Shown in pieces: positions 46,274 to 63,956 of a DNA stretch of 64,000 nucleotides; the first letter of the stretch is position 1; each line of letters starts with the position of its first letter. The notes under the pieces were generated by a model. The model searched no databases, was not told where the DNA came from, and worked only from the letters and a program-made list of their open reading frames with translations. Position numbers and translations under genes: made by a program. The stretch comes from an uncultured Gemmatimonadales bacterium. Lineage in GTDB: Bacteria > Gemmatimonadota > Gemmatimonadetes > Gemmatimonadales > GWC2-71-9. The stretch lies in the NCBI GenBank assembly GCA_963771275.1, contig CAVYSW010000003.1, positions 1,408,001 through 1,472,000 on the forward strand, in the 5' to 3' direction.

Positions 46274-47423
46274 CTACCGATACTCGTCCCCCCATAGCGC
46301 TTCCAGGAACTCGGCGCAGGGAAGCACCTGAATGCCGTCAACCACCCTGCGGCGCGGCTCGAGACAGGCGCAGACGTACCGCTTGAGCTTCGCCTCCTCG
46401 CTTGAGCGCCCGCAGCGACCTGAGGTCCGCGCCCGAAACCGTGGTGCTGGCCTTCACCTCGACGGCGGTGTGATCGCCGAGGATGAAGTCCACCTCGAAG
46501 CCCGACGTGGAGCGCCAGAAGTGCAGCGCGTCGCCGGACCGGTAGTCGCTCCAGGCCGACAGCTCGTGCATCAGCCAGGTCTCGAAGCCGGGGCCGAACT
46601 CCGGCGTCCCGCGACGCAGGAGCCGCCCCTGAAGCGCGGACACGACCCCGACGTCGAAGAAGTAGTACTTCGACGAGGCCACGGGCTTGCGCCGCGCCGA
46701 CTTCCGCCACGCCGGAAGCTCCCGCACCAGCAGCGTGTCCTTCAGGATCTCGAAGTACTCGTGCACCGTGGTGCGCGGCACCTGCGCGTCGTTGGCCACC
46801 TTCGTGAAGTTCACGATCGTGCCGTTGCACAGCGCGGCGACCCGAAGAAACCGGCCGAACGCCGGCACGTTGCGCGTGGCCCCCTCGGCCACCACCTCCT
46901 GCTGGAGGTAGGTGCCCCCGTAGGCCTCCAGGTCCGCGGCGGGATCATCCGAGAAGTAGATGGAAGGCAGGGTCCCGCGCTCGATCGCACGGGCCAGGTC
47001 GAAATGCTCCCCCAGCTCGGCCCAGGTCAGGGGATGCAGGTACTTCGTTCGGGCGCGACCACCCAGCAGGTTGACGCCGCCGCGGCGGAGCTTCCTCGCG
47101 CTCGAGCCGGTGAGCAGGAAGCGAATGCCGCGCTCCTCGATCAGGCGATGCACCTCGTTGAGCAGCTCGGGGAGACGCTGAATCTCGTCGATCACCACGA
47201 GGCGGGTATCGGGGTCGAGCTCTTCGGCCAGCCGACCGGGGCTTCGGCTCAGCGCCAGGTAGACGGCGCTATCCAGCAAGTCATAGACCTTGGCGCCGGA
47301 CAGGGTCCGGCGAATCAAGGTCGTCTTGCCGGTCTGCCTCGGCCCGAACAGGAAGTGCGACTTCCGTGCGAGCAGGGCGGTCAGGTCGAGGGCGCGCTCG
47401 AGGAACGGTGTCTGTGTCGCCAT
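46274..47423 (-). CDS. AAA_14 ATPase with DUF4143 domain (+1 frameshift near 46402, probably a read error)
   Basis: GPRQTGKT, IDEIQ, LTGSS, KYYFFDVG, EVDFIL..AVEVK; corrected tail ...FLEALWGDEYR-stop. Confidence 0.9.
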
Positions 47424-47425
47424 AG

Positions 47426-47463
47426 TCGTCATTTATCATGATATATGACGATAGAGGCGTCAA
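47426..47463 (-). promoter_or_regulatory. Promoter with overlapping 26-bp palindromic operator
   Basis: tcgtcat-t-tatcatgata-t-atgacga; minus-strand TTGACG-17-CATGAT. Confidence 0.7.
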
Positions 47464-48830: not shown

Positions 48831-49037
48831 GTGAGTCCCAAGGTGCGGAAGACCCTCAACATCGACGCCGCCAAGCTGCGCCGCGCCAAGGAGTACCTCG
48901 GCCTCGATACCGAGACTGCGGTGATCGATCACTTGTTGGATCGGGTGGAATACGAGCGTGAGCTGGACGCGGTGCTGGCGCAGGCATCGGCATCCTGGAA
49001 GCGGTTTCGGTCACCGCTCGCCGAGCGTCGTGGATGA
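48831..49037 (+). CDS. vapB: VapB-like antitoxin
   Basis: RKTLNID...A...LG..TET; stop overlaps the PIN gene start. Confidence 0.75.
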   Translation: MSPKVRKTLNIDAAKLRRAKEYLGLDTETAVIDHLLDRVEYERELDAVLAQASASWKRFRSPLAERRG

Positions 49038-49447
49038 GGGTGGTCCCGGACACCAACGTCTGGATCGGTTGGTTCCGGTCTGGCGAAGTCCCGCGGCCTC
49101 TGCCCGTGACACCTCGGCCGGTCGTTCTCGTGTCGTCGATCGTCCTCCAAGAGCTGTGGGCCGGCGTCCGATACGATGCCGAGGCGCGGGACCTGGACCG
49201 GCTCTATCGAGTCGCGTTGCGCCACCGCACCATATTGACCCCGCCGCCCGCCGCGTGGATTCTGGCGGGTCAGGTGCTGGCCCGTCTCCGGGCGCGCGGC
49301 TCACTGCGCGCTGCGCGCCTCCGAGCTCTCCGGAACGACGTCCTCCTCGCCGCCTCCGCGCTCCTGGCCGGCGCCGCCATCATGACGCACGACCGATCGG
49401 ACTTCGAGCTCATCGGCCAGGAGTTGGCAGTGTCGATTGTCGAATAG
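49034..49447 (+). CDS. vapC: PIN-domain (VapC) toxin
   Basis: DTNVWI, ELWAG, NDVLLAASA, THDRSDF. Confidence 0.88.
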   Translation: MRVVPDTNVWIGWFRSGEVPRPLPVTPRPVVLVSSIVLQELWAGVRYDAEARDLDRLYRVALRHRTILTPPPAAWILAGQVLARLRARGSLRAARLRALRNDVLLAASALLAGAAIMTHDRSDFELIGQELAVSIVE

Positions 49448-52754: not shown

Positions 52755-54306
52755 TCAGCGCGCCGACGTCGCCGTGATGAGTTGCGCGATGTTGGCCTTG
52801 AGCTTCACCAGCTCCGGCTCGAGCACGTACATCATGTGCCCCGCCTCGTAATAGCGCTGCTCGACGTGCGCGCGGATGCTGGCCGGGACGGCCAGGTGGT
52901 CGATGGTGTACTCGATGGCGAAGAACGGCGTCGCCAGATCGTAGTAGCCGTTCTCGATCTGGACCCGAAGGTTGGGGTTCGTGAGCAGCGCCTGCGCGAG
53001 GTCGGATCCCACGTAGGGAGCACCGCCGCGACCTCCGCCCCCGCCCCCGGCCTGCCCCTCGCGCGTCCAGTTCCAGCCGGGCGTGCCGCCCGAGAGGCTG
53101 TAGCGCTCGTCGGTCGTGAACTTGAGGTCCTCGCGCAGGTACGAGTTGATCGCGGCCGTGTAGGCGCTGCTGATCGCCGTGGACTGGGGGTCATAGTCGG
53201 CCGTCTCGGCGAGCTGGTCACCCATCGGCCCGTCGAATCGGGAGTCGAGCCGCCCGGTCGCCAGGCCCTGGCGGCGCTGCAGCTCGGCCCGGAACTGGCC
53301 GAGGTTCACCCGCAGGTCCGCCTTGCCGAGATAGTCCTCCGAAAGGCCGGTGTACTGCGAGAGCTGCTTCAGCGTGGCGGCGCGGTCGGCGTCGGACAGG
53401 CTGCCGCCCTTGGACAAGGCGGCGAGGTACGGGCCCAGCGCGTAGCGCCGCACTTCGTCGAGAAACGCGGAGAGATTCTGCGGCTTAGGTGTCAGCCCGT
53501 GGTAGGCTGCCGTCGCGGCGTAGCTCGGCAGGTAGAGCGCGTAGCCGATGTCGTGGCCCGGCGCGAACGCGAGCGTCTCGAAGTCGAGCACCGCGGAGAT
53601 CAGCACGACGCCGTTGAAGTCCATGCCCTCGCGCCGCTGCAGCCGGTTTACCAGCACGGCCGAGCGCGTGGTGCCGTAGCTCTCGCCGATCAGGTACTTG
53701 GGCGAGTTCCAGCGGGCGTTTTGGCTCACGTAGTGGCTGATGAAGCTGGCGAGCGACGCCGCGTCCTCGTCGATCCCCCAGAAGTCCCGGCCCGTGCCCT
53801 TGCCGACCACCCGGCTGAACCCGGTGCCGATCGGGTCGATGAAGACCAGGTCGGCCACGTCGATCAGGCTGCTGGCGTTGTCCACGCAGCTGGTAGGGCG
53901 CCGGCGGCGTGGGCGCGGCGTCGGTGGTGACGACGCGCCGCGGGCCGAAGGCGCCCATGTGCAGCCAGGCCGAGGCCGAGCCGGGGCCGCCGTTGTAGAC
54001 GAACGCGAGGGGCCGGCGGCTCACGTCCCTGACGTCGGTGCGCGTGTACGCCGTGTAGTAGAGGCTGCCGATGGGCTCGCCCCGGCCGTTGGTGAGCAGC
54101 ATGGTCGCGGCGGTCGCCCGGTAGGGGATCACCTGTCCGTCGATGCGGATGGTGTGCTCGGTGACGGAGGACATCTCCTTGGGCACCGGCAGTGGTGCGC
54201 CCTCCACCGCGGCCGAGTCGCGGATCTGGGCAGGCTGGCGTTGCGCCAAGGCCGGCACGGCGGACGCGAGGGCGAGCAGGGCGACCACGAAGCACGAACG
54301 GCGCAT
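52755..54306 (-). CDS. S10 serine carboxypeptidase (+1 frameshift near 53887)
   Basis: NGGPGS, FIDPIGTGFS, GESYG, GYYDLATP, AGHMMY split over two frames. Confidence 0.9.
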
Positions 54307-54379
54307 GGGATTCCCTCCGAGGGCTGGTGCTGGGCGGTGCGGACGGTACGGGCGGATCGCGCGAGAATATACGCCGGGC

Positions 54380-54422
54380 TTGCGGCGCTGGCGTCAGGTA
54401 TGGTAGTATGGCAATATGGCAT
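54380..54422 (+). promoter_or_regulatory. TA promoter with three 8-bp TATGG-core repeats
   Basis: TTGCGG-18-TAGTAT; tatggtag tatggcaa tatggcat overlap the -10 and the ATG. Confidence 0.65.
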
Positions 54423-54700
54423 CCAACAAGATGACCTTTACGCTGGACGCCGAGACCGTGGCGCGCATTGACCGCACGGCGGCCCGCCTGGGCACGTCGA
54501 AGAGCGGGGTGGTGCGAGAGGCCGTGCGTGAGTACGCGGCGCGGGTCGGGCGCCTGAGCGATGACGAGCGGCGCCGCCTGCTGGCCACGTTCGACGAGGT
54601 CGTGGCCCGCATCCCCAGGCGCGCGGCCGCCGCGACCGATCGCGAGATCGCCGCGGTGCGCGTGGCCCGCCGCGGTGGGGGCCGCAAGTCGCCCGCGTGA
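54416..54700 (+). CDS. Ribbon-helix-helix (CopG-like) antitoxin
   Basis: KMTFTLD...SKSGVVREAV. Confidence 0.85.
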   Translation: MASNKMTFTLDAETVARIDRTAARLGTSKSGVVREAVREYAARVGRLSDDERRRLLATFDEVVARIPRRAAAATDREIAAVRVARRGGGRKSPA

Positions 54701-55077
54701 TCCTGCTCGACACGTCCGCCCTGATTGACTGTCTCACCGGACCGCGGCGCTCGGCGCCCGCGGTCCGCCGCGCCCTGGCCGACGGTGAGCGCGTGGTGCT
54801 CGCGACCCTGGTGCTCTACGAGTGGCTGCGTGGGCCCCGCCTGCCGGAGGAGCTAGCCGCTCAGGAGGCGCTGCTTCCCCAGGCCGCCGCCATCCCCTTC
54901 GGCGCAGACGAGGCCCGCCGCGCGGCGGAGCTGTACCGTTCCGTGCCGGGTGCCCGTGGCCGGGAACCGGGCTTGGCCATCGCGGCGTGTGCGCTGGTGT
55001 GGGACGCGCGCGTGTGGACGCTCAACGTGGCGGACTTCCGGGACATCCCGGACCTGGTGGTGGAGCGGCCGCGCTGA
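54697..55077 (+). CDS. vapC: PIN-domain (VapC) toxin
   Basis: ILLDTSALI, YEWLRG, LAIAACA, TLNVADF. Confidence 0.88.
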   Translation: MILLDTSALIDCLTGPRRSAPAVRRALADGERVVLATLVLYEWLRGPRLPEELAAQEALLPQAAAIPFGADEARRAAELYRSVPGARGREPGLAIAACALVWDARVWTLNVADFRDIPDLVVERPR

Positions 55078-55425
55078 TCTGACGCATCGGGCTCGGCGAC
55101 GGCAGGTCCGACCTAGCCGGGGCCCTCCCGCTCAGCGACCGTCACCGCATGGCTCCCCATCGCGAGGAGTCGCCCAACCTCGCAGAACGCGGCCAACAAC
55201 CCCTGGTGCAGCCCAAGACTCCCGTGCCCAGGATTCAGGGCGGGGGCGCAAGCGGCTTACGCCGGCGGCCGGCCGGATGGAATAGGGTGGTCGCCGCTGT
55301 CGCGGCTCCCGCTCCCCCTGACGCCAGAACGCTCTTGCAGGCCGCGGACGCTCGGTCCTGCCGCACCGCTGTTCAATCTCGTCCAGGATTCGACGGTCGT
55401 CGCCGAGTCGCTGCTGCGCGAGGTC

Positions 55426-56844
55426 GTGGTGCAGCTGCCCGCGAGCGGCAGCGCCGACAGCGATCTTGTGGCCAACCTGTGGCTTCCGGGGGAGCTGAGC
55501 GGGCCGGCGATCATCGAGGTGGCGGGCCCGTTCCAGCTCGATGCCGGGACCCTGCCCGTCACGGACGCCCTGACGAGTGGGGCCTTGCTCTGGTACGAGG
55601 AGTCGATCATCACGGCGCCTCCCATACGGCCCCCGTCGGGAGCGCCGCCGTTGCGGTCAGGGCCGCTGCCCGGAGACCTCGTGCTGCTCACGCTCGTGCG
55701 GGAGGCCGCGCTGTCGTTCGAGGCGCTGGCCCCCGGCGACACGGCCGAGCGACTGGGTGTCGATCTCTCGGGGCCGCTCGACTCGGCCCGGTTCGTGGAC
55801 GCGGCCGCGGCGAGCCACGGCATGCAGCTGCGCTGGTGGTATTCCGATGGGGACCAGTCCCTGGGCTTCCCCGAGAACCTGGACTCGGCCTGTGCATTCA
55901 TCGGGCGCTTCGGGTGTGCGGCGCTGCCGCCGCGGGACAGCGCGCATCTGTCGAATGGGCAGCCGCACGGCGAGGTGCGGATCCGGGTGTACCGGGCGGG
56001 ACAGCCCGTGAATGTGGAGATTGACACGGTGTACGGTCCTAACCCCGGAACGGTGTACAGCCTGAGCGGTTCGTTTACCACCTTGGTGGGTGAGAATGTG
56101 GTGTTTCTACAGGCGAGTACCACCCCCACGGCGTTGGGACCAGGGGTAGCATGGGCCGTTGTCCCGGCGGCGCAGGCCGCAGCCGAGACCCAAGCTCCGG
56201 AGCCGCCTCCGCAGGGGGCAACCTCTCAGTTCAGCGTACCAACTCCATCGAACGCTGATGGCCGGTGGCAAGCATATGGGCATCCTGGCGCCCTGGAGGT
56301 GAAGAGGCTCGGCTACGAGGTGAGGGCGAGAGTGTCGAGTGGCGCCACACAATTGCAGAGCGGTCCGCTACGGGTGTACCAGGACGAGATCGACGTCGTG
56401 CGGCAGGAGTACATTGACCTGTCCGTTCTCAGGGGCGTCCCATCCAGAGGCCGTTTTCTGACAGAGCTGCCCACCGATCCCGGTCTGAATACTGGAGACT
56501 ACGGGCTCATGGTGTGGAACAACGACTTCGTGGTCCACCTGAACGACCTGTCGTTCCAGTGGACTGCTTTTGGCGAGTGGCGGATCAACAGTTACTATCG
56601 CAATCCGACACATCAGCGATTCCACATACCTGGCGCGAGCCGCCCGGGCCGAAATAGCTGGCACCTCTTTGGTTGTGCTGCTGACATTCAGACATTCGGT
56701 GATGACGCAGCTGCCAGGGACGAATTCTGGACGAAGCTTGCAAGCCTCGCCGACAGCCTCGGCTTTGACTACGTAGAGCCGCAGGCAGAGAGTGGAGTTG
56801 GGCACGTTCATGTCGAGTTCCATTTCTGCCAATTGAACCAATGA
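55426..56844 (+). CDS. Protein with C-terminal M15-type (D-Ala-D-Ala / peptidoglycan) zinc peptidase domain; true start probably upstream
   Basis: INSYYRNP, SWHLFGCAAD, HVHVE; frame stays open back to about 55285. Confidence 0.8.
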   Translation: MVQLPASGSADSDLVANLWLPGELSGPAIIEVAGPFQLDAGTLPVTDALTSGALLWYEESIITAPPIRPPSGAPPLRSGPLPGDLVLLTLVREAALSFEALAPGDTAERLGVDLSGPLDSARFVDAAAASHGMQLRWWYSDGDQSLGFPENLDSACAFIGRFGCAALPPRDSAHLSNGQPHGEVRIRVYRAGQPVNVEIDTVYGPNPGTVYSLSGSFTTLVGENVVFLQASTTPTALGPGVAWAVVPAAQAAAETQAPEPPPQGATSQFSVPTPSNADGRWQAYGHPGALEVKRLGYEVRARVSSGATQLQSGPLRVYQDEIDVVRQEYIDLSVLRGVPSRGRFLTELPTDPGLNTGDYGLMVWNNDFVVHLNDLSFQWTAFGEWRINSYYRNPTHQRFHIPGASRPGRNSWHLFGCAADIQTFGDDAAARDEFWTKLASLADSLGFDYVEPQAESGVGHVHVEFHFCQLNQ

Positions 56845-58376
56845 GCACTCCGCCAATGAAGCTCCCATCGTTCGTGTCCGTGGCCCGGTACCTCCTGACG
56901 GTCAGCCTGGTATGCGCTGGCTCGCTCCGCCCGCTGCTCGGACAACAATCGCCGCCAGAGTCTCTGCTGGTGCAGCTCCGCTCACCGGACTGGCTAATCC
57001 GCTCCGACGCGTTGGTTCGCTTGGGCCGTCTGCCTCAGGACTCGCTGCCGGCCGGGTACGCCGACGCGATCGTTCAGTTGTTGGAGCAAGAAGCTGTGTC
57101 GCCTGATACTACGCAATTCGGGGAAGGCCATGGGGAGTACATGATTCAGGTTGTCGACGCGGCCCTGAGGCTTAGAGATCCGCGTACTCTTCGCGGGATG
57201 TCGGTTTGGGGCACCCAAATCAGCCGTGCAGCACGAGACTTTGTGGCCCAGCAGGGGAGTGCTGCCCTGCCATACCTTGACGAGGCATGGAATTCCCCCT
57301 ATGCCAGCCGCCATTTTGTGGTAATCACTTGGGCTCTGATGCTTGGGAAGTACAAGGACAGACTCAGTCCGAGCGAGCGCCAGTCTGTGCTTGCCGCTGT
57401 TCTGCACAGCGACTCCTTGGCCCTCATAGAATCGGCCAGCAGGATCCCATTACCGGAAGCAGTTCCGCTCCTTGAGGGTATGGCTTCAAATGCTGGCTCG
57501 AGAATCTTGCGGGTTTCCGCAGACCAGACTGCAGCCGCTTTGCGCCCACTGAGGGAAGCTCTTGCCCCGGCGGAGGTCGTGCAGAAGATCTCCGACGTAC
57601 TGGGAGCGCTGTGCGTGGGGGCCCAGGCGGCCCGCAACGACGCGTGTGTTTCGCTTTCGAGCAACCTTACTGAAGCGACGACGCTGATCGAAGCCAACCA
57701 AACGGCCGCCGCCCGTGATAGGCTCATGGCGTTCGCGGCTGAGGTCGATGCCGGCCTTCAGCAAGGGCTCTGGAACGACGGCGAGCGTCGACTCCTCGGG
57801 GACAACGCACGGTACCTCAGTTCCCGCCTCGCCATTGCCCTCTTCCTCGAGGGCGCCGGCGCCACGGCCAATCCGCCGACCCTCTCCCTGTCAACGAGCG
57901 CCCCGACCAGCACCACCGCGAAGTACAAGGACTCTCCCGCGATCACGTTCGCCGGGGGCAACCCCTGGGCCGAGATTGGCACTTGGTCCGCCCCCCCCGC
58001 GCTCGTGAGCGGTACGTTGGCGGCGCTCGGCGGCGCCCAGCTCTGGCTCGGCCTCAGGAACAGCGATGACATCGGCACGAACTTCGATCTGCGGGTCGAG
58101 GCGTACGAGAACGGTGGCCTAGTGGCGTCGGGGGAGACGCACTGCATCCAGGGGCTCACGCGCAACGCCAATCAGGCGCACGAAGTCGCCGTGGCGTTCG
58201 ACGCCTTCCCGGCCACGGCCTTTGACGGGACGAACGACGTGCTGAGCCTCAGAGTCCTGACACGGATCGGGACGACGGAGACGGGGGCGTCCTGCGGGGG
58301 GCATCACAATGCCGTGGGACTCAGGCTCTACTTCGACGCCACGACCCGGCCGGCGCAGCTCACCGCCACGTTCTGA
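56841..58376 (+). CDS. Exported HEAT-repeat protein with a helical (FIMAH-like) domain and a C-terminal beta domain
   Basis: Signal peptide, LRSPDWLIRSDALVRL, LRDPRTL, AVPLLE; ATGA overlap with the upstream gene. Confidence 0.7.
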   Translation: MSTPPMKLPSFVSVARYLLTVSLVCAGSLRPLLGQQSPPESLLVQLRSPDWLIRSDALVRLGRLPQDSLPAGYADAIVQLLEQEAVSPDTTQFGEGHGEYMIQVVDAALRLRDPRTLRGMSVWGTQISRAARDFVAQQGSAALPYLDEAWNSPYASRHFVVITWALMLGKYKDRLSPSERQSVLAAVLHSDSLALIESASRIPLPEAVPLLEGMASNAGSRILRVSADQTAAALRPLREALAPAEVVQKISDVLGALCVGAQAARNDACVSLSSNLTEATTLIEANQTAAARDRLMAFAAEVDAGLQQGLWNDGERRLLGDNARYLSSRLAIALFLEGAGATANPPTLSLSTSAPTSTTAKYKDSPAITFAGGNPWAEIGTWSAPPALVSGTLAALGGAQLWLGLRNSDDIGTNFDLRVEAYENGGLVASGETHCIQGLTRNANQAHEVAVAFDAFPATAFDGTNDVLSLRVLTRIGTTETGASCGGHHNAVGLRLYFDATTRPAQLTATF

Positions 58377-58403
58377 GGTAGCTCAGCCCTCACAGCTTTG
58401 GCC

Positions 58404-59102
58404 CTACTCGTCCTTGAGCCGGTACCCCACGCCCGGCTCGGTGGTGAGGTAGCTGGGCCGGGCCGGATCGGCCTCGAGCTTGTGACGGAGCTGGGCCATG
58501 TAGACCCGCAGGTAGTGCGTTTGCGTCGGAGCGGTGAGCCCCCACACCTCCTTGAGGAGTTGACGGTGGGTCACCACCCGTCCCGCGAAGCGCACCAGCA
58601 TGGCGAGCAGCTTGTATTCCGTCGGCGTGAGGTGCACCGGGGCATCGCGCACCGCGACCTCGCGTCGCACGAGATCGATGTGCAGGTCGCCCACCGCAAA
58701 CACCGGCTGGTCCGCGCCGTCCGCGGCGCGCCGGGCGTGGCGCAGAGCCACCCGCACCCGCGCCAGCAGCTCGCCCACGCTGAACGGCTTGGTGAGGTAG
58801 TCGTCGGCGCCGAGATCGAGCGCCGCGATCTTGTCCTGCTCGCGCCCGCGGGCCGAAATCACGATGATCGGCACGGGCGACCACTCCCGCAGCCGCCGAA
58901 TCACCTCGAGCCCGTCGGTGTCGGGAAGGCCCAGGTCGAGCAGGACGACGTCGGGCCGGCGGCCCGCCGCCTGGGCGAGGCCCACACGCGCGGTTTCCGC
59001 CTCGACGAGGTCGTAGTCCTGCGCGCCGAGGCCGGCGCGCAGAAACCGCCGCATCTGGGGCTCGTCCTCGATCAGCAGGATGACGGCGGCTGCCGTGGTC
59101 AT
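58404..59102 (-). CDS. kdpE: KdpE response regulator
   Basis: IEDE, LDLGLPD, GADDYLTKPF, HYLRVYMAQLRHKLEADPARP. Confidence 0.95.
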   Translation of the reverse strand: MTTAAAVILLIEDEPQMRRFLRAGLGAQDYDLVEAETARVGLAQAAGRRPDVVLLDLGLPDTDGLEVIRRLREWSPVPIIVISARGREQDKIAALDLGADDYLTKPFSVGELLARVRVALRHARRAADGADQPVFAVGDLHIDLVRREVAVRDAPVHLTPTEYKLLAMLVRFAGRVVTHRQLLKEVWGLTAPTQTHYLRVYMAQLRHKLEADPARPSYLTTEPGVGYRLKDE

Positions 59103-61813
59103 GTGGTTGTCGGCGTCCGGTGGACTGCCTCCGCGTCTTCGGCGGGCGGCAGTGATGGTGCCGGCCCTTCGATCGGCAACGAAAAGCGGAACCGCGCGCC
59201 GCCGCCCGGCCGCGGCTCCACCCAGATGCGGCCGCCGTGCGCGGTGACGATCCCGCGACAGATGGCGAGGCCGAGCCCGGCGCCGCCCGGGGCGGCGCGG
59301 TCGGCGAGCCGTGCGAACTTCTGGAACACACGCTCCTCCTCGCCCCGGGGGATCCCCGGGCCGCGGTCCGCGACCTCGACGACGACCGCGCCGTCGCCCA
59401 GCTCCGCGTCGATGTCGATCGGCCCGCCCGGCGGCGTGTACTTCGTCGCGTTGTCGAGCAGGTTGATCAGCACCTGCTCGATCAGCAGCCCGTCGATCGG
59501 CACGAGGGGAAGATCGCCCGGCAGATGGGTATGAATCGCGCGTCCCGCGAGCTGCGTGTCGAGCCGGAGCAGCGCGATGCCGACGACTTCCTCGAGCGGC
59601 TGCCACTCCTTGCGGACCTCCACCAGGCCGGACTCGACCTTGACCATCTCGAGCAGGTTGCCGATCAGGCGGCCCATGCGGCGCGATTCGCCCAGCACGG
59701 AAGCCAGCAGTTCGCGCCGGGCTGCCGCGTCGATCGCGGCGCCGCTGTCGAGCAGGGTAGACGCCGCACCCTCGATGGCGCCGAGCGGGGTGCGCAGGTC
59801 GTGCGACAGCGAGCTGAGCAGCGCCGTACGCAGGCGCTCAGCCTCGATCTCGAGTCGCGCGCGTTCCGAGCGGCGCACCAGATCGGCCCGCTCGAGCGCC
59901 ACGCCGGCCTGGCCGGCGATCGCCTCGAGCAGCTGGCGCTCGATCGGATCGCGCGCGCGCCGCGGATCGCGCACCACCACCCGCAAGACCCCGACCGCCC
60001 GGTTCGAGGCCGTCAGCGGGAGGTAAAGCGCGTCCGCCCCAGGCAGCGTGTCGGTGCCGGTCCCCGCGGGCTGCTGGTGCCCCAGGACCCAGCGCGCGAC
60101 ACCCAGCGCCGCCTCGCTCAACGCGCCGTCGTTCGCGGCGGCCGCCGGCTCGAGGTCGCCGTGCTCGTCGGGCAGGAGCACGGTCCCCGGCGTCCCGAAC
60201 GTCTCCCGCACCTGCGTGGAGAGGGCCAGCGCCAGCTCCTGCGCATCGCGCGCCGCGGCGAGCCGGCGGCTCAGCGCGTACAGCGCCGCCGTGTGTTGCT
60301 CGCGCTCCCGCGCCGCGTCGGCCTGGCCCCGGATGCGTGCAGCGAGGCGGCTGATCAGCAGCGCCACGACGAGCATCACGACGAACGTGAATAGATAGCC
60401 TGCGTGGGCGACGGCGAACGTGTAGTACGGCGGCACGAAGCAGAAGTCGAACACGGCGATGCCGAGCACGGACGCGAGCACCGAGGGGCGGGTGCCGTAG
60501 CGTGCGGCCGCGATCATCACGGCGAGCAGGAACAGCATCGCGATATCGGTCGTGCTCACCCAGGCGCGCACCGCGAGACCGATGGCCGCCGCGGCTGCCA
60601 CGACGCCCGAGGCACCGAGGTAGGCCCGCGTCGAGAACGGCGGGCGCTCACGGCGCACGGGCATGCGCTCCTCCACCTCGCCCGTGATCACGTACACATC
60701 GATCTCGCGGCTGCCACGAATCAGCTTGTCCAGCAGCGACCCGGTCAGCCGGTCGCGCCAGTGCGGGTGCGTCGGCTTGCCGGCGATGATCCGGGTAACG
60801 TTCTGGCCGCGGGCGTAGGCGAGAATCTCCGGCACCACGTCGTCCGCGCTGAGTGTCACGGTCCGTGCGCCGAGCTGCTCCGCGAGGCGGAGGTTCACCG
60901 TCAGGGCGTCGCGGTCGGTGGTGGAGAGCCGCTGCCGGCTGGACTGGACGTGGAGCACCACCCAGTCGGCGTGCAGCGCCGCCGCGATGCGGCGGCCCGC
61001 GCGGATCAGGCGGGCCGAGGCCGGGTTGGGGCCGATGCAGACCAGAATCCGTTCGCCGGCGGGCCAGGTGCGCTCGATCCCGTGGGCTTCGCGGTAGCCG
61101 CGCATCTGCGCTTCCACCCGCTCTGCCGTGCGGCGGAGGGCGAGTTCGCGCAGCGCGATGAGGTTGCCCTTGCGGAAGAACTGCTCCAGCGCGCGCGCCG
61201 CCTGCTCGGGGACGTAGACCTTCCCGTCGCGCAGGCGCTCGATCAGCACCTCGGCCGAGATGTCGACCAGCTCCACTTCATCGGCCCGCTCGAACACGGC
61301 GTCGGGAATGGTTTCCCGCACCACGACGCCCGTGATCTGAGCCACGACGTCGTTGAGGCTCTCGATGTGCTGGACGTTGAGCGTGGTCGAGACGCTGATC
61401 CCGGCGGCCAGCAGCTCTTCCACGTCCTGCCACCGCTTGGTGTGGCGCGAGCCGGGCGCGTTAGTGTGCGCCAGCTCGTCCACCAGGATCAGGCCCGGCC
61501 GGCGGGCCAGCGCCGCGTCGAGATCGAATTCCTGCAAGGTGGTGCCGCGATACTCGACGCTCCGGCGCGGAAGCACCTCCAGGCCGTCGAGCAGCCGCCC
61601 GGTTTCGGGGCGGCCGTGAGTCTCCACCACGCCGGCCACCACGTCCACGCCCTCAGCCCGGGAGGCGCGCGCGGCCTCGAGCATGGTATACGTCTTCCCC
61701 ACGCCCGGAGCCGCGCCGAAGAACAGCTTGAGGCGGCCACGGCGCGCCTGGGTCTCCTCTTCCGCCGCTCGCGCCAGGAGGGCGTCGGGATCCGGTCGCT
61801 CGGGCGCCGTCAT
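59099..61813 (-). CDS. kdpD: KdpD sensor histidine kinase
   Basis: GAAPGVGKTYTML, VDELAHTN, USP domain, four TM, GAF, SHDLRTPL, GLGL. Confidence 0.97.
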   Translation of the reverse strand: MTAPERPDPDALLARAAEEETQARRGRLKLFFGAAPGVGKTYTMLEAARASRAEGVDVVAGVVETHGRPETGRLLDGLEVLPRRSVEYRGTTLQEFDLDAALARRPGLILVDELAHTNAPGSRHTKRWQDVEELLAAGISVSTTLNVQHIESLNDVVAQITGVVVRETIPDAVFERADEVELVDISAEVLIERLRDGKVYVPEQAARALEQFFRKGNLIALRELALRRTAERVEAQMRGYREAHGIERTWPAGERILVCIGPNPASARLIRAGRRIAAALHADWVVLHVQSSRQRLSTTDRDALTVNLRLAEQLGARTVTLSADDVVPEILAYARGQNVTRIIAGKPTHPHWRDRLTGSLLDKLIRGSREIDVYVITGEVEERMPVRRERPPFSTRAYLGASGVVAAAAAIGLAVRAWVSTTDIAMLFLLAVMIAAARYGTRPSVLASVLGIAVFDFCFVPPYYTFAVAHAGYLFTFVVMLVVALLISRLAARIRGQADAAREREQHTAALYALSRRLAAARDAQELALALSTQVRETFGTPGTVLLPDEHGDLEPAAAANDGALSEAALGVARWVLGHQQPAGTGTDTLPGADALYLPLTASNRAVGVLRVVVRDPRRARDPIERQLLEAIAGQAGVALERADLVRRSERARLEIEAERLRTALLSSLSHDLRTPLGAIEGAASTLLDSGAAIDAAARRELLASVLGESRRMGRLIGNLLEMVKVESGLVEVRKEWQPLEEVVGIALLRLDTQLAGRAIHTHLPGDLPLVPIDGLLIEQVLINLLDNATKYTPPGGPIDIDAELGDGAVVVEVADRGPGIPRGEEERVFQKFARLADRAAPGGAGLGLAICRGIVTAHGGRIWVEPRPGGGARFRFSLPIEGPAPSLPPAEDAEAVHRTPTTT

Positions 61814-61932
61814 GGCATCCAAGCTAGCGGCGCAGCGGTGCCAACGACAGCAATCCCGAGGACCGGCCGGGCGCGCTCTCACCCCCCGTCCGGCAATCGG
61901 GAGCCGGCGCGGCGGCTGCGGCGCCGGCGCTC

Positions 61933-62200
61933 GTGGCGCCCGCCGAGCCGGCGGAACCGAAGCGCTCGGACGAGCCGCATATCGAGACGCTCCGCTGCTC
62001 GACCTGCAACGAGTGCACCGAGGTCAACGACCGGACGTTCAAGTACAACCAGGACAAGCAGGCGTCCATGGCGGACCTGAAGGCCGGGACGTACGCGCAG
62101 ATGGTCCAGGCGGCCGAAAGCTGCCAGGTGGCGGTGATCCATCCCGGCAAGCCGTGGAACCCAGACGAGCCCAGGCTGGAGGCACTGCCGCCGCCCGTCG
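61933..62200 (+). pseudogene. Orphan 4Fe-4S ferredoxin-domain fragment
   Basis: IETLRCSTCNEC...AAESCQVAVIHPGKP; no RBS and no stop before running antisense into the porin. Confidence 0.7.
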
Positions 62201-62205
62201 AGGCG

Positions 62206-63318
62206 CTAGAGCGTCAGCGCGAGCGAAGTGACCGCGACGCCGCTATTGCGGGAAAAGCCACCGTCCCGAGTGGGGTAGATATCCCCGTCGCCCCGGAAGC
62301 CACGCAACTCCGTCCGCCACAGGAAGCCCTTCGGCAGGGTGACGTCGAATCCCACCGAAGCGCCGGTCGTCTCGAACGCGGCGGTGCCCAGACTCGGCAC
62401 GATGACCCCGTCGGGATCGGCATACCGCTCCACCCGCGCGCTGAGCGCCACGGCGCCCGTCACGGGGACGCGACCGATCACCGCGAGCCCGTACCACGTC
62501 GAGGCGTCCGCCCCCGGAACGCTCTGGGTGCCGAGATCGAACGTGAGCCACACGGCGGCGCCGTCCGTCCGCCCGAGGCGCGCGAACACCTGGTTGAACA
62601 CGCGCAGCCGGTTGGGCAGGGAGTCGGGTTGCTCGTCGCCGATGAAGTTGCTGTAGCCGAGCAACACCCTCCCGGAAGGCGCGTACTCGACGCGCAGGCC
62701 TGCGGCCTTGCCCTCGTTCGTTTCCGAGATGTTCTGCCAACCGTTCACGAAATGCAGATGCAGGGTGACGGCGGCGCTGACCTGCCACACGGCGCGCACG
62801 CCGGCCGAGTAGTACGGCGTGTAGTCCGCGATGAGCGAGCGGGTGTATGTGGGATTGTCACGCGAGATCCACGACTCCTGCCCGATGTGTGAGAAGAAGA
62901 TGCCCGCGTCCACCCAGAGCGGCGTGGCCACGCGCAGGCCCACGTATGCCTCCTGGAGCAAGCGACTCAGATCGGGCCCGCTCACGCTGCCGATCCGCGG
63001 CTCAGCCGCGTAGTTCGACTGGACCGACGTCCCGGCCTGAAGCGCCAGGCGCCCGCGCACGCTCGTCCGCTCGAGCCGGGCTTCGACGAACGCCAGGTTC
63101 ACGTTGAACTCGGAATGGCGGGCGGGCTGCGTCGTGTATACACGGTCCAGGGACGGCGGCCGGGAGAAATCCCACGCGTAGTACGTGTCCACGAACGCCG
63201 CCACGTGCACGCCCTCGGGCAAACCCTGGGCGATGAGTGGGGTCCACGCGGGAGTCGCGAGCAGAAGGACCAGGAACGGCATGCCCAGACCGGGCAGGCG
63301 CCGGGCTTCGGTGTGCAC
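62206..63318 (-). CDS. Outer-membrane beta-barrel porin (BBP2-like), kdp-associated
   Basis: DTYYAWDF, QEAYVG, SHIGQE, TPYYSAG, NGWQNI; signal peptide. Confidence 0.85.
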   Translation of the reverse strand: MHTEARRLPGLGMPFLVLLLATPAWTPLIAQGLPEGVHVAAFVDTYYAWDFSRPPSLDRVYTTQPARHSEFNVNLAFVEARLERTSVRGRLALQAGTSVQSNYAAEPRIGSVSGPDLSRLLQEAYVGLRVATPLWVDAGIFFSHIGQESWISRDNPTYTRSLIADYTPYYSAGVRAVWQVSAAVTLHLHFVNGWQNISETNEGKAAGLRVEYAPSGRVLLGYSNFIGDEQPDSLPNRLRVFNQVFARLGRTDGAAVWLTFDLGTQSVPGADASTWYGLAVIGRVPVTGAVALSARVERYADPDGVIVPSLGTAAFETTGASVGFDVTLPKGFLWRTELRGFRGDGDIYPTRDGGFSRNSGVAVTSLALTL

Positions 63319-63371
63319 AAAACACCTCTCTTGGTGAGGATCAGTTGGATTCGTGAGAAGTCAGTTGGGGG

Positions 63372-63956
63372 TCATTGCCGCGACAGGGGCGCGAGACTAT
63401 CCAGCGCCAGATTGAGCAGCAGCACGTTGACCCGCGGCTCACCGATGAGCCCGAGCGTGCGGCCCTCCGTGTGCCGGTCCACCAGCGACTGGATCTCGTC
63501 CACGGTCCGGCCGCGAGCCCGTGCTACCCGCCCCACCTGGTACGCGGCGGCGGCGGGGGAGATGTGGGGATCGAGACCGCTCCCGGACGCGGTCACGAGG
63601 TCCACCGGCACCGGCCGGGTCTGCGCGGGGTCCGCGGCGCGGAGGGCCGCAACGCGTTGCGCGATCGCTTCCGCGAGCGCCGGATTGGTCGGCCCCAGGT
63701 TGGAGCCGCTGGACGCCGCCGCGTTGTAGGGCACCGGGCCGGTCGCCGACGGCCGGCTCCAGAAGTACGCCGGATCGGAGAACGGCTGGCCGATCAAGTC
63801 GCTTCCCACCACGCGGCCGTCGTGGACGATCAGGCTGCCGTTGGCCTGGCGGGGAAACAGGAGCTGCGCCACGCCCGTGGTGACGGCGGGATAGACCAAG
63901 CCGGTGAGGATGGTGAAGAGCGCCAGCAGGACGAGCGCGGGACGGAGATGAGACAT
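63372..63956 (-). CDS. kdpC: K+-transporting ATPase subunit C
   Basis: [42 protein letters not shown]. Confidence 0.97.

Follow-up and report, generated by a model that had tools for sequence, protein, structure and literature searches.

A two-gene zinc peptidase module with an exchanged core in an uncultured Gemmatimonadales bacterium, likely a polymorphic toxin with an exported immunity protein

We analyzed a 64,000-nucleotide stretch of DNA (the window) from an uncultured Gemmatimonadales bacterium (GenBank assembly GCA_963771275.1, contig CAVYSW010000003.1, positions 1,408,001 to 1,472,000), and in particular a pair of overlapping genes. Gene 1 encodes an N-terminal scaffold, a linker, and a zinc peptidase domain; gene 2 encodes a partner protein with a HEAT-like head, a four-helix bundle, and a jelly-roll tail (Table 1). 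The original prediction, made from the sequence alone, was that the pair is a swappable effector-immunity cassette with constant outer domains and a variable core. Its observations stand, with refined boundaries, and its interpretation is supported in part. Both open reading frames and the ATGA that couples them (56841-56844) are present as described. Searches of Pfam and NCBIfam with the full proteins gave no match for either gene, and nothing above chance was found for flanking repeats, a promoter, or a terminator at this locus.

Table 1. Features of the two-gene module (positions in the window)
Feature	Positions	Strand	Basis or remark
Gene 1 open reading frame	55426-56844	+	GTG start; present in sequence
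Scaffold domain at the N terminus of gene 1 (left exchange arm)	55363-55995	+	188/211 identical to P0124, 178/211 to P0125
Low-GC exchanged core spanning the gene junction	55999-57836	.	Change-points, genome percentile, homology breaks
Linker of gene 1, likely Ig-like; low-GC core starts here	55996-56379	+	Sequence identities
M15A-type zinc peptidase domain, predicted peptidoglycan hydrolase	56380-56844	+	H-x6-D, HxH
Gene 2 open reading frame	56841-58376	+	Present in sequence
Gene 2 start and predicted Sec signal peptide	56841-56942	+	Hydrophobic 12-mer
HEAT-like helical solenoid (head), likely immunity domain	56943-57572	+	AlphaFold pLDDT ~90
Four-helix bundle (FIMAH-like), two conserved Cys, end of low-GC core	57573-57836	+	Homologue Pfam, VIA
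Jelly-roll tail (right exchange arm), likely glycan-binding	57837-58376	+	Residues 333-511, 179 aa

First, the middle of the module differs in composition from its ends. GC content at third codon positions (GC3) changes from 0.895 to 0.676 at 55999 in gene 1 and from 0.690 to 0.899 at 57837 in gene 2; for each shift, none of 500 permutations gave a change-point as strong. The dip had been placed by eye at about 56040-57700, and recomputing it showed that it is real but slightly wider. The core has a GC content of 0.610, as compared to a genome mean of 0.703 (standard deviation, 0.026), and just 7 of 2094 equal-sized tiles of the genome are as low. Both change-points coincide with breaks in homology. 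We rejected the idea that the region is an assembly artefact or chimera because short-read contigs reproduce it without gaps except for 47 uncovered bases: contigs from X1, possibly the source sample, match the window gap-free over 54791-56252 and 56300-59500. X1, X2 (a run that belongs to another study), and X3 all bridge the left junction; the right one is spanned by X1 alone. The uncovered bases are at 56253-56299, where the loose ends of the contigs resemble adapter sequence.

Second, homology to relatives changes at the same places. The scaffold has a GC3 of about 0.9 and no Pfam name. A search with the N-terminal part of gene 1 found four other proteins at 76-88% identity, and the scaffold is up to 89% identical in relatives (P0124). 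The similarity stops abruptly near nucleotide 55995 (the alignment breaks after residue 293), and three bases separate this point from the change in GC3. Past the break, P0124 is identical at 27 of 128 and then 42 of 154 positions. The window's linker is identical at 65-75 of 128 positions to those of P0128, P0152, and P0153, whose scaffolds differ, and at only 23-29 of 128 to those of P0124, P0125, and P0127. It is likely Ig-like; weak matches to Big_1 were found in the linkers of alleles with the MepA-type peptidase described below. A profile search with the scaffold gave 27 matches, three of which (P0145, P0148, and P0151) we dropped as repeat-rich chance matches.

The peptidase domain has the M15 motif set that was originally reported: SYYR (56590-56601), S-W-H-x6-D (with the H at 56662-64 and the D at 56683-85), and HVHVE (56803-56817). 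The H, the D, and the HxH are invariant in all 13 of the M15A-type domains that we aligned, and we take H-x6-D and HxH to be the zinc-site motifs of Peptidase M15. When searched alone, the window's domain matches Peptidase_M15_4 only (E = 0.057-0.065, and 14.4 bits as compared to a cut-off of 25). Peptidase_M15_3 matches 7 of the 13 aligned domains (best E = 1.6e-5), and M15_3 is also the top match in the Atlas (0.81), which is a lead only. A PDB sequence search with the domain gave no relevant match, and a single-sequence model of it had a predicted local distance difference test score (pLDDT) of 33.5. We infer from its family membership, which is supported by the motifs although the profile score is below the cut-off, that the enzyme would cut peptidoglycan.

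The M15A type is one of several catalytic tips that follow the scaffold. It is followed by an M15A-type tip in P0128 and, in part, in P0135; a MepA/M74-like HxH tip in nine proteins; and a C39-like papain tip in loci L107 and L108 (E = 0.0026, which is below the cut-off). Peptidase_M74 matches 6 of 13 MepA-type domains from the loci (best E = 9.8e-5), and the only PDB sequence that the MepA-type alignment matched was MepA itself (1tzp, E = 0.015). The M15A-type and MepA-type profiles gave no alignment with each other (probability 1.6%). Two more types of tip have no match in Pfam or NCBIfam: five proteins (P0131, P0133, P0134, P0139, and P0147) have a His-Glu-Gly-like motif, and two (P0136 and P0142) have motifs that look JAB-like by eye, a reading that neither Pfam nor NCBIfam supported.

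Gene 2 had been described as encoding an exported protein that starts with HEAT repeats. A simple hydropathy check does find a hydrophobic N-terminal segment (a 12-mer with a mean of 2.1), which is similar in 9 of 9 homologues checked. An AlphaFold model built from 18 sequences (mean pLDDT 85.2) predicts a helical solenoid, then a four-helix bundle, and then a beta-sandwich. The solenoid aligns to HEAT/ARM chains (VIA Z 8.8-9.4), and HEAT_2 matches 5 of the 18 aligned sequences (best E = 8.6e-4), but no Pfam family matches the window protein. As modelled, this HEAT-like head is likely the domain that would bind the cognate peptidase. The bundle resembles part of a GH92 protein (7nsn; VIA Z 13.2, root-mean-square deviation 2.1, 91 positions aligned), and FIMAH is above the Pfam cut-off in the homologous bundles of P0022 and P0035. 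It is 57-62% identical to the bundles of two HEAT-type partners that share the window's tail, 30-31% identical to those of two tailless HEAT-type partners, and 18-34% identical to those of partners with the other kind of head, which we term beta-type. PDB sequence searches with HEAT-type and beta-type partners gave no match.

The constant C-terminal arm of gene 2 exists, but it is about 180 amino acids long instead of the 250 or so first suggested. It is up to 75% identical in relatives: P0004 is identical to the window at 134 of 179 positions of the tail, as compared to 33 of 210 in the head and 19 of 88 in the bundle. Nucleotide homology to loci with beta-type partners begins at 57831-57867, and the proposal that the tail serves as a second recombination arm holds up. 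The tail's best structural match is the non-catalytic C-terminal jelly-roll of 8yzn (VIA Z 13.1, root-mean-square deviation 2.9, 144 positions aligned), followed by those of PepX (6nff, Z 12.1) and cocaine esterase (3i2f, Z 10.9) and by a GH51 domain (Z 9.5). A Foldseek search with the tail gave E = 2.8e-5. Matches in the Atlas were to unnamed clusters only. Within the length range searched, at least 235 proteins carry this domain. Among the 120 that were listed, 14 have HEAT-type heads, 21 have beta-type heads, and 85 are unrelated secreted proteins, in which the tail is C-terminal (59 proteins) or in the N-terminal half (24 proteins). This unnamed domain (57837-58373; P0026-P0122) is found on Kelch, RCC1, FG-GAP, NHL, and other propellers, and it also occurs in L004, a locus from Actinomycetes. 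At other loci, the place of the tail is taken by CBM96/DNRLRE (L009), by CBM5/12 (L010 and L176), or by nothing (L109, L110, and several others). CBM96 is reported to bind alginate (PMC9971899), and DNRLRE is found in the wall-binding part of a WapA toxin (PMC12704120). Because of its modelled jelly-roll fold, and because it swaps with CBM96 and CBM5/12, the tail is likely glycan-binding.

We compared the window with loci from genome scans and from a metagenome scan (the best 80 of 232 for the latter); the module profiles used to annotate these loci were derived from the same families. As envisaged originally, several relatives have homologous pairs in which matching outer domains enclose different catalytic and partner cores. 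Scaffolds of the window's type precede MepA-type cores in P0124, P0125, and P0127. P0124 and P0013, a beta-type partner, were each traced to a single 8378-nt contig; if the two contigs are one, then the window's closest scaffold relative would hold the other core. A different scaffold, of the type found in L003, precedes either core: P0128 and P0129 share 142 of 176 positions, then 26 of 125 and 35 of 158, and the core of P0128 matches the window's (65 of 128 and 84 of 154). Same-site alleles were also found. The upstream 4.4 kb of L021 and L033, which take in a second scaffold unrelated to the window's, are 91% identical; their cores, of about 1.9 kb, have no blastn match; and their tails and downstream genes are 88-94% identical. 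By our reading, with gene names taken from the translations, moaA and mdh flank this site. It contains M15A-type peptidases with HEAT-type partners in L109, L110, L011, and L021, a MepA-type peptidase with a beta-type partner in L033, and just a HEAT-type partner in L002 and L015. The expectation that the outer domains are constant holds within lineages but not universally, as at least four different N-terminal scaffolds precede the same cores, and the tail varies as well. Overall, the core is real and recently exchanged, and the exchange takes place between the scaffold arm and the tail arm. The exchanged block comprises the linker, the zinc peptidase, the N-terminal domain of the partner, and the four-helix bundle. 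Homologous recombination is presumably the route.

Extra cassettes and orphan partner genes occur at these loci. L009 and L031 contain two tandem cassettes, and the second cassette of L031 begins with a truncated scaffold of the window's type. Eight loci have a partner only (L002, L015, L165, L167-L169, L171, and L175), and two of these (L165 and L171) have two partners without an enzyme. In L162-L164 and L166, only a 3' stub of an enzyme gene lies upstream of the partner. Frameshifts or truncations affect the enzyme gene of many related loci (L010, L011, L012, L019, L021, L106, L109, and L166), and the partner gene is broken in L002, L163, L164, and L171; assembly errors are possible in all of these. 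Identical copies of a hairpin-like direct repeat of 52 nt flank the cassette in L033 (3634-3685 and 6891-6942), and the same repeat flanks the cassette in L021 (3312-3354 and 6873-6915). Such a repeat could allow the whole pair to be excised or inserted. It is not present at the window's locus, and the window's genome has one match to it, of 41 nt, on contig C10.

The type of the partner's head follows the type of the peptidase. Among 52 partner genes, 18 combine a HEAT-type head with an M15A-type peptidase and 21 combine a beta-type head with a MepA-type peptidase, and there are no crossed combinations. The remaining genes have no catalytic match within 450 nt upstream (10 genes) or are at contig edges (3 genes), so all 39 of the assignable pairs are concordant. 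Clustering at 90% identity leaves 37 clusters: 8 HEAT-type with M15A-type, 19 beta-type with MepA-type, none crossed, and 10 without a catalytic match. Sequence identities are also correlated, both between M15A-type domains and HEAT-type heads (rho = 0.76 over the 8 loci that are left once 5 near-duplicates are removed, reached in 28 of 5000 permutations) and between catalytic domains and heads in 13 pairs (rho = 0.83, 0 of 5000 permutations). The identities of the tails are uncoupled (rho = -0.08 and 0.07, 7 loci). On a tree of the tails, the core label switches 6-7 times, and neither label is monophyletic in any bootstrap tree.

The module is patchily distributed. The partner's helical bundle was found in 25 of 400 genomes from the same family, with weak generic matches included, and in none of 6 genomes from the same genus (71-89% complete). 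The window's genome has one copy of the cassette, and viral contigs hold no relative of it. In 5 of the 6 same-genus genomes, a search for the empty site found only vapBC and other flanking genes, in other contexts.

The window's gene 1 also differs from its relatives at its 5' end. By a simple rule, 19 of 25 scaffold homologues have a hydrophobic stretch followed by a lipobox-like Cys, and the other six all start inside the scaffold. In the window, conserved coding sequence starts near 55363, which is about 20 codons before the first usable GTG. We considered whether a frameshift hides the signal peptide, but the sole contig that covers 55160-55395, from X1, shows no indel. Compared with the signal region of L031, the DNA upstream shows no more similarity than shuffled sequences do (770 of 2000). 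These sequences suggest that the 5' end of gene 1 was lost or replaced and that its product is likely not exported; because most homologues have a lipoprotein signal and this one does not, the allele is probably disarmed. A ribbon-helix-helix (RHH) and PIN toxin-antitoxin pair (vapBC; 54416-55077, + strand) lies directly upstream of the cassette, and copies with 75-78% identity are found in two same-genus genomes, in other contexts. Its arrival might be linked to the loss of the 5' end.

What does the module do? We think it probable, if far from certain, that the locus is an allele of a two-gene module with an exchanged middle block that encodes a polymorphic peptidoglycan-peptidase toxin and its exported, cognate immunity protein. 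The hallmarks of polymorphic toxins that we found are one scaffold with several catalytic tips, a type-specific downstream gene, and extra or orphan cassettes. That the partner acts in immunity is suggested by where it lies, by its predicted export, by a head specific to the catalytic type, and by how often partner-only loci occur. The system as a whole appears to be a polymorphic lipoprotein peptidoglycan-peptidase/immunity system in Gemmatimonadales; the same DNA is found again among genomes of the window's family.

Under this toxin and immunity reading, intact gene 1 products would be lipoproteins exported by Sec and processed by SPII, and the HxH zinc domain would cut the stem peptides of peptidoglycan in neighbouring cells. 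The partner would be exported as well, its N-terminal domain would bind and block its own peptidase, and the glycan-binding tail would hold it in the envelope. Homologous recombination in the scaffold and the tail would bring in new cores. Since the tail would both anchor the antidote and provide the second homology arm, the tip and the head would be replaced as one block across the gene boundary. In the window's genome, the peptidase lacks a signal and is likely unexported, and the intact partner may still protect the cell. More broadly, and more tentatively, these loci may be an interbacterial conflict system of Gemmatimonadota that has not been described before, in which lipoproteins with interchangeable wall-cutting tips are matched by exported immunity proteins with an exchangeable glycan-binding tail; we put this at somewhat below even odds.

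Several results weigh against a toxin and its immunity protein. The reading rests on a genomic pattern, and we did not identify a delivery route. On the tail tree, just two label changes are forced by the well-supported branches. Physical linkage would also yield strict pairing and mirrored identities, as the domains are about 100 nt apart. Given this distance, and given that the core types share no alignable sequence, a crossover between the catalytic and head domains is unlikely irrespective of function. The window's M15 domain does not reach any Pfam cut-off, and no lipoprotein signal was found for gene 1 in any of the three forward frames upstream. Searches of the window's genome for paralogous, silent, or tandem cassettes (with tblastn, blastn, and ten module hidden Markov models) found none. 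Finally, no partner gene lies downstream of the C39-type scaffold genes of L107 and L108, and in P0038 a single chain combines a C39 peptidase domain with the tail, as would suit a tail that serves in targeting.

P0038 is one reason to consider the strongest rival, in which the partner is a carrier or targeting subunit that uses its glycan-binding tail to bring the peptidase to the surface of prey or competitors. The kinds of tail observed (CBM96, CBM5/12, or jelly-roll) would suit this role, and co-variation between catalytic domains and heads would be expected for any obligate complex. However, a carrier without cargo would be of little use, and 10 of the 52 partner genes have no upstream catalytic match, including some in tandem (L165 and L171) and some (L002 and L015) at the site where their relatives L109, L110, and L021 keep the full pair. 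L109, L110, and several others lack the tail. We consider this explanation unlikely.

Another possibility, which we judge improbable, is that gene 1 encodes an accessory wall-remodelling lipoprotein and gene 2 its regulator, with the mosaic reflecting ordinary domain shuffling or horizontal transfer and no conflict between cells. Linkage alone can account for the pairing, most of the listed proteins with the tail (85 of 120) are not cassette partners, and none of the loci that we read contain Rhs, VgrG, or a similar delivery domain. But remodelling does not lead us to expect the patchy presence (25 of 400 genomes from the same family and 0 of 6 from the same genus), the replacement of one allele by another at a single site (L021 and L033), partner-only arrays and catalytic 3' stubs upstream of partners (L162-L164 and L166), or several unrelated C-terminal domains on one scaffold. 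Third, M15_3 domains occur in predicted type VI secretion system (T6SS) effectors (PMC6833914), the window's gene 1 has no signal peptide, and contig C10 has two TssC (PF05943) matches, but it is very improbable that the allele is a cytoplasmic cargo effector of this genome's T6SS: those genes are on another contig with nothing linking them to the locus, no vgrG- or PAAR-like gene is beside it (by eye, from the list of open reading frames), 19 of 25 scaffold homologues are lipoprotein-like (including one that is 89% identical), and the available GTG lies about 20 conserved codons inside the scaffold.

As for the genomic surroundings, a kdp operon converges on the cassette (58404-63956, - strand), and a short ferredoxin-like fragment lies near 61950-62170 (61933-62170, + strand). 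Upstream of the cassette are an ATPase gene (46338-47432, - strand), apparently frameshifted at its 3' end, and a second PIN-like gene (49034-49447, + strand); all four were identified from their translations. A peptidase-like gene, of type S10 by reading, at 52755-54306 (- strand) is split by a frameshift. One base, at 53889, is missing from the contigs of both X1 and X2, and X1 differs from the window at 29 other positions over 53626-54592, so this region may contain an assembly error or reflect a second strain. The two TssC matches are adjacent (G000:C10:134235-136847), which points to a type VI secretion cluster in another part of the genome.

Gemmatimonadota are common bacteria of soil and sediment. 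This family offers testable pairs of enzyme and partner in two unrelated classes of zinc peptidase. If the partners inhibit, they would be new inhibitors of peptidoglycan peptidases, and the two head domains would be two new inhibitor classes, for M15A-type and MepA-type peptidases. We did not find a description of the family in the full-text literature, and the supplements of two large surveys could list it.

How does the module compare to known systems? Some polymorphic toxins have a lineage-specific N-terminal domain that follows a signal peptide or lipobox, such as MafB-N, Microscilla-N, and Amoebophilus APD1/APD2 (Zhang et al. 2012, PMC3482391). Like those toxins, the module combines a lineage-restricted, conserved N-terminal domain behind a signal or lipobox with a variable enzymatic C terminus, a downstream partner gene, and extra cassettes in relatives. 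It departs from them in that its scaffold has no match to a sequence family, several unrelated scaffolds share the same cores, and the partner, which has three domains and is predicted to be exported, has a tail that is a second exchange arm.

A system with a lipobox and a Cystatin-like domain (PMC12419801) also has a lipoprotein whose constant N-terminal domain is combined with exchangeable tips, among them a VanY-like DD-carboxypeptidase and one that is papain-like, and immunity proteins that are predicted to act in the envelope. There, however, one related family of membrane-anchored, BamE-like immunity proteins serves all of the tips, whereas here each catalytic type has an unrelated partner head, with a four-helix bundle and a tail, and the predicted model contains no BamE-like fold. 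The window's scaffold has no Pfam or NCBIfam match.

SitA/SitI of myxobacteria (PMC8546572) are similar in that a lipoprotein with a family-defining N-terminal escort domain carries a modular toxin, cognate immunity is encoded in the same operon, and there are several non-homologous families of N-terminal domains. In contrast, the tips of SitA are nucleases active in the cytoplasm, and TraAB outer-membrane exchange delivers them, while the main tips here are predicted wall peptidases and the partners have a signal-like N terminus. Among predicted T6SS effectors are proteins with M15_3 (Tpe14, PMC6833914) and MepA-like (WHIX subclass II, PMC12135965) domains, whose matching immunity proteins mostly have predicted signal peptides. 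The catalytic classes and the neighbours with a signal peptide are shared with our loci, but here the peptidases are lipoprotein-like and are not linked to T6SS genes.

By the features tested, the window's module belongs to none of these families. A multi-domain partner is unusual for lipoprotein polymorphic toxin/immunity modules, and the design, in which the toxin gene provides one exchange arm and the immunity gene's tail the second, departs from the usual replacement of a tip plus a downstream cassette.

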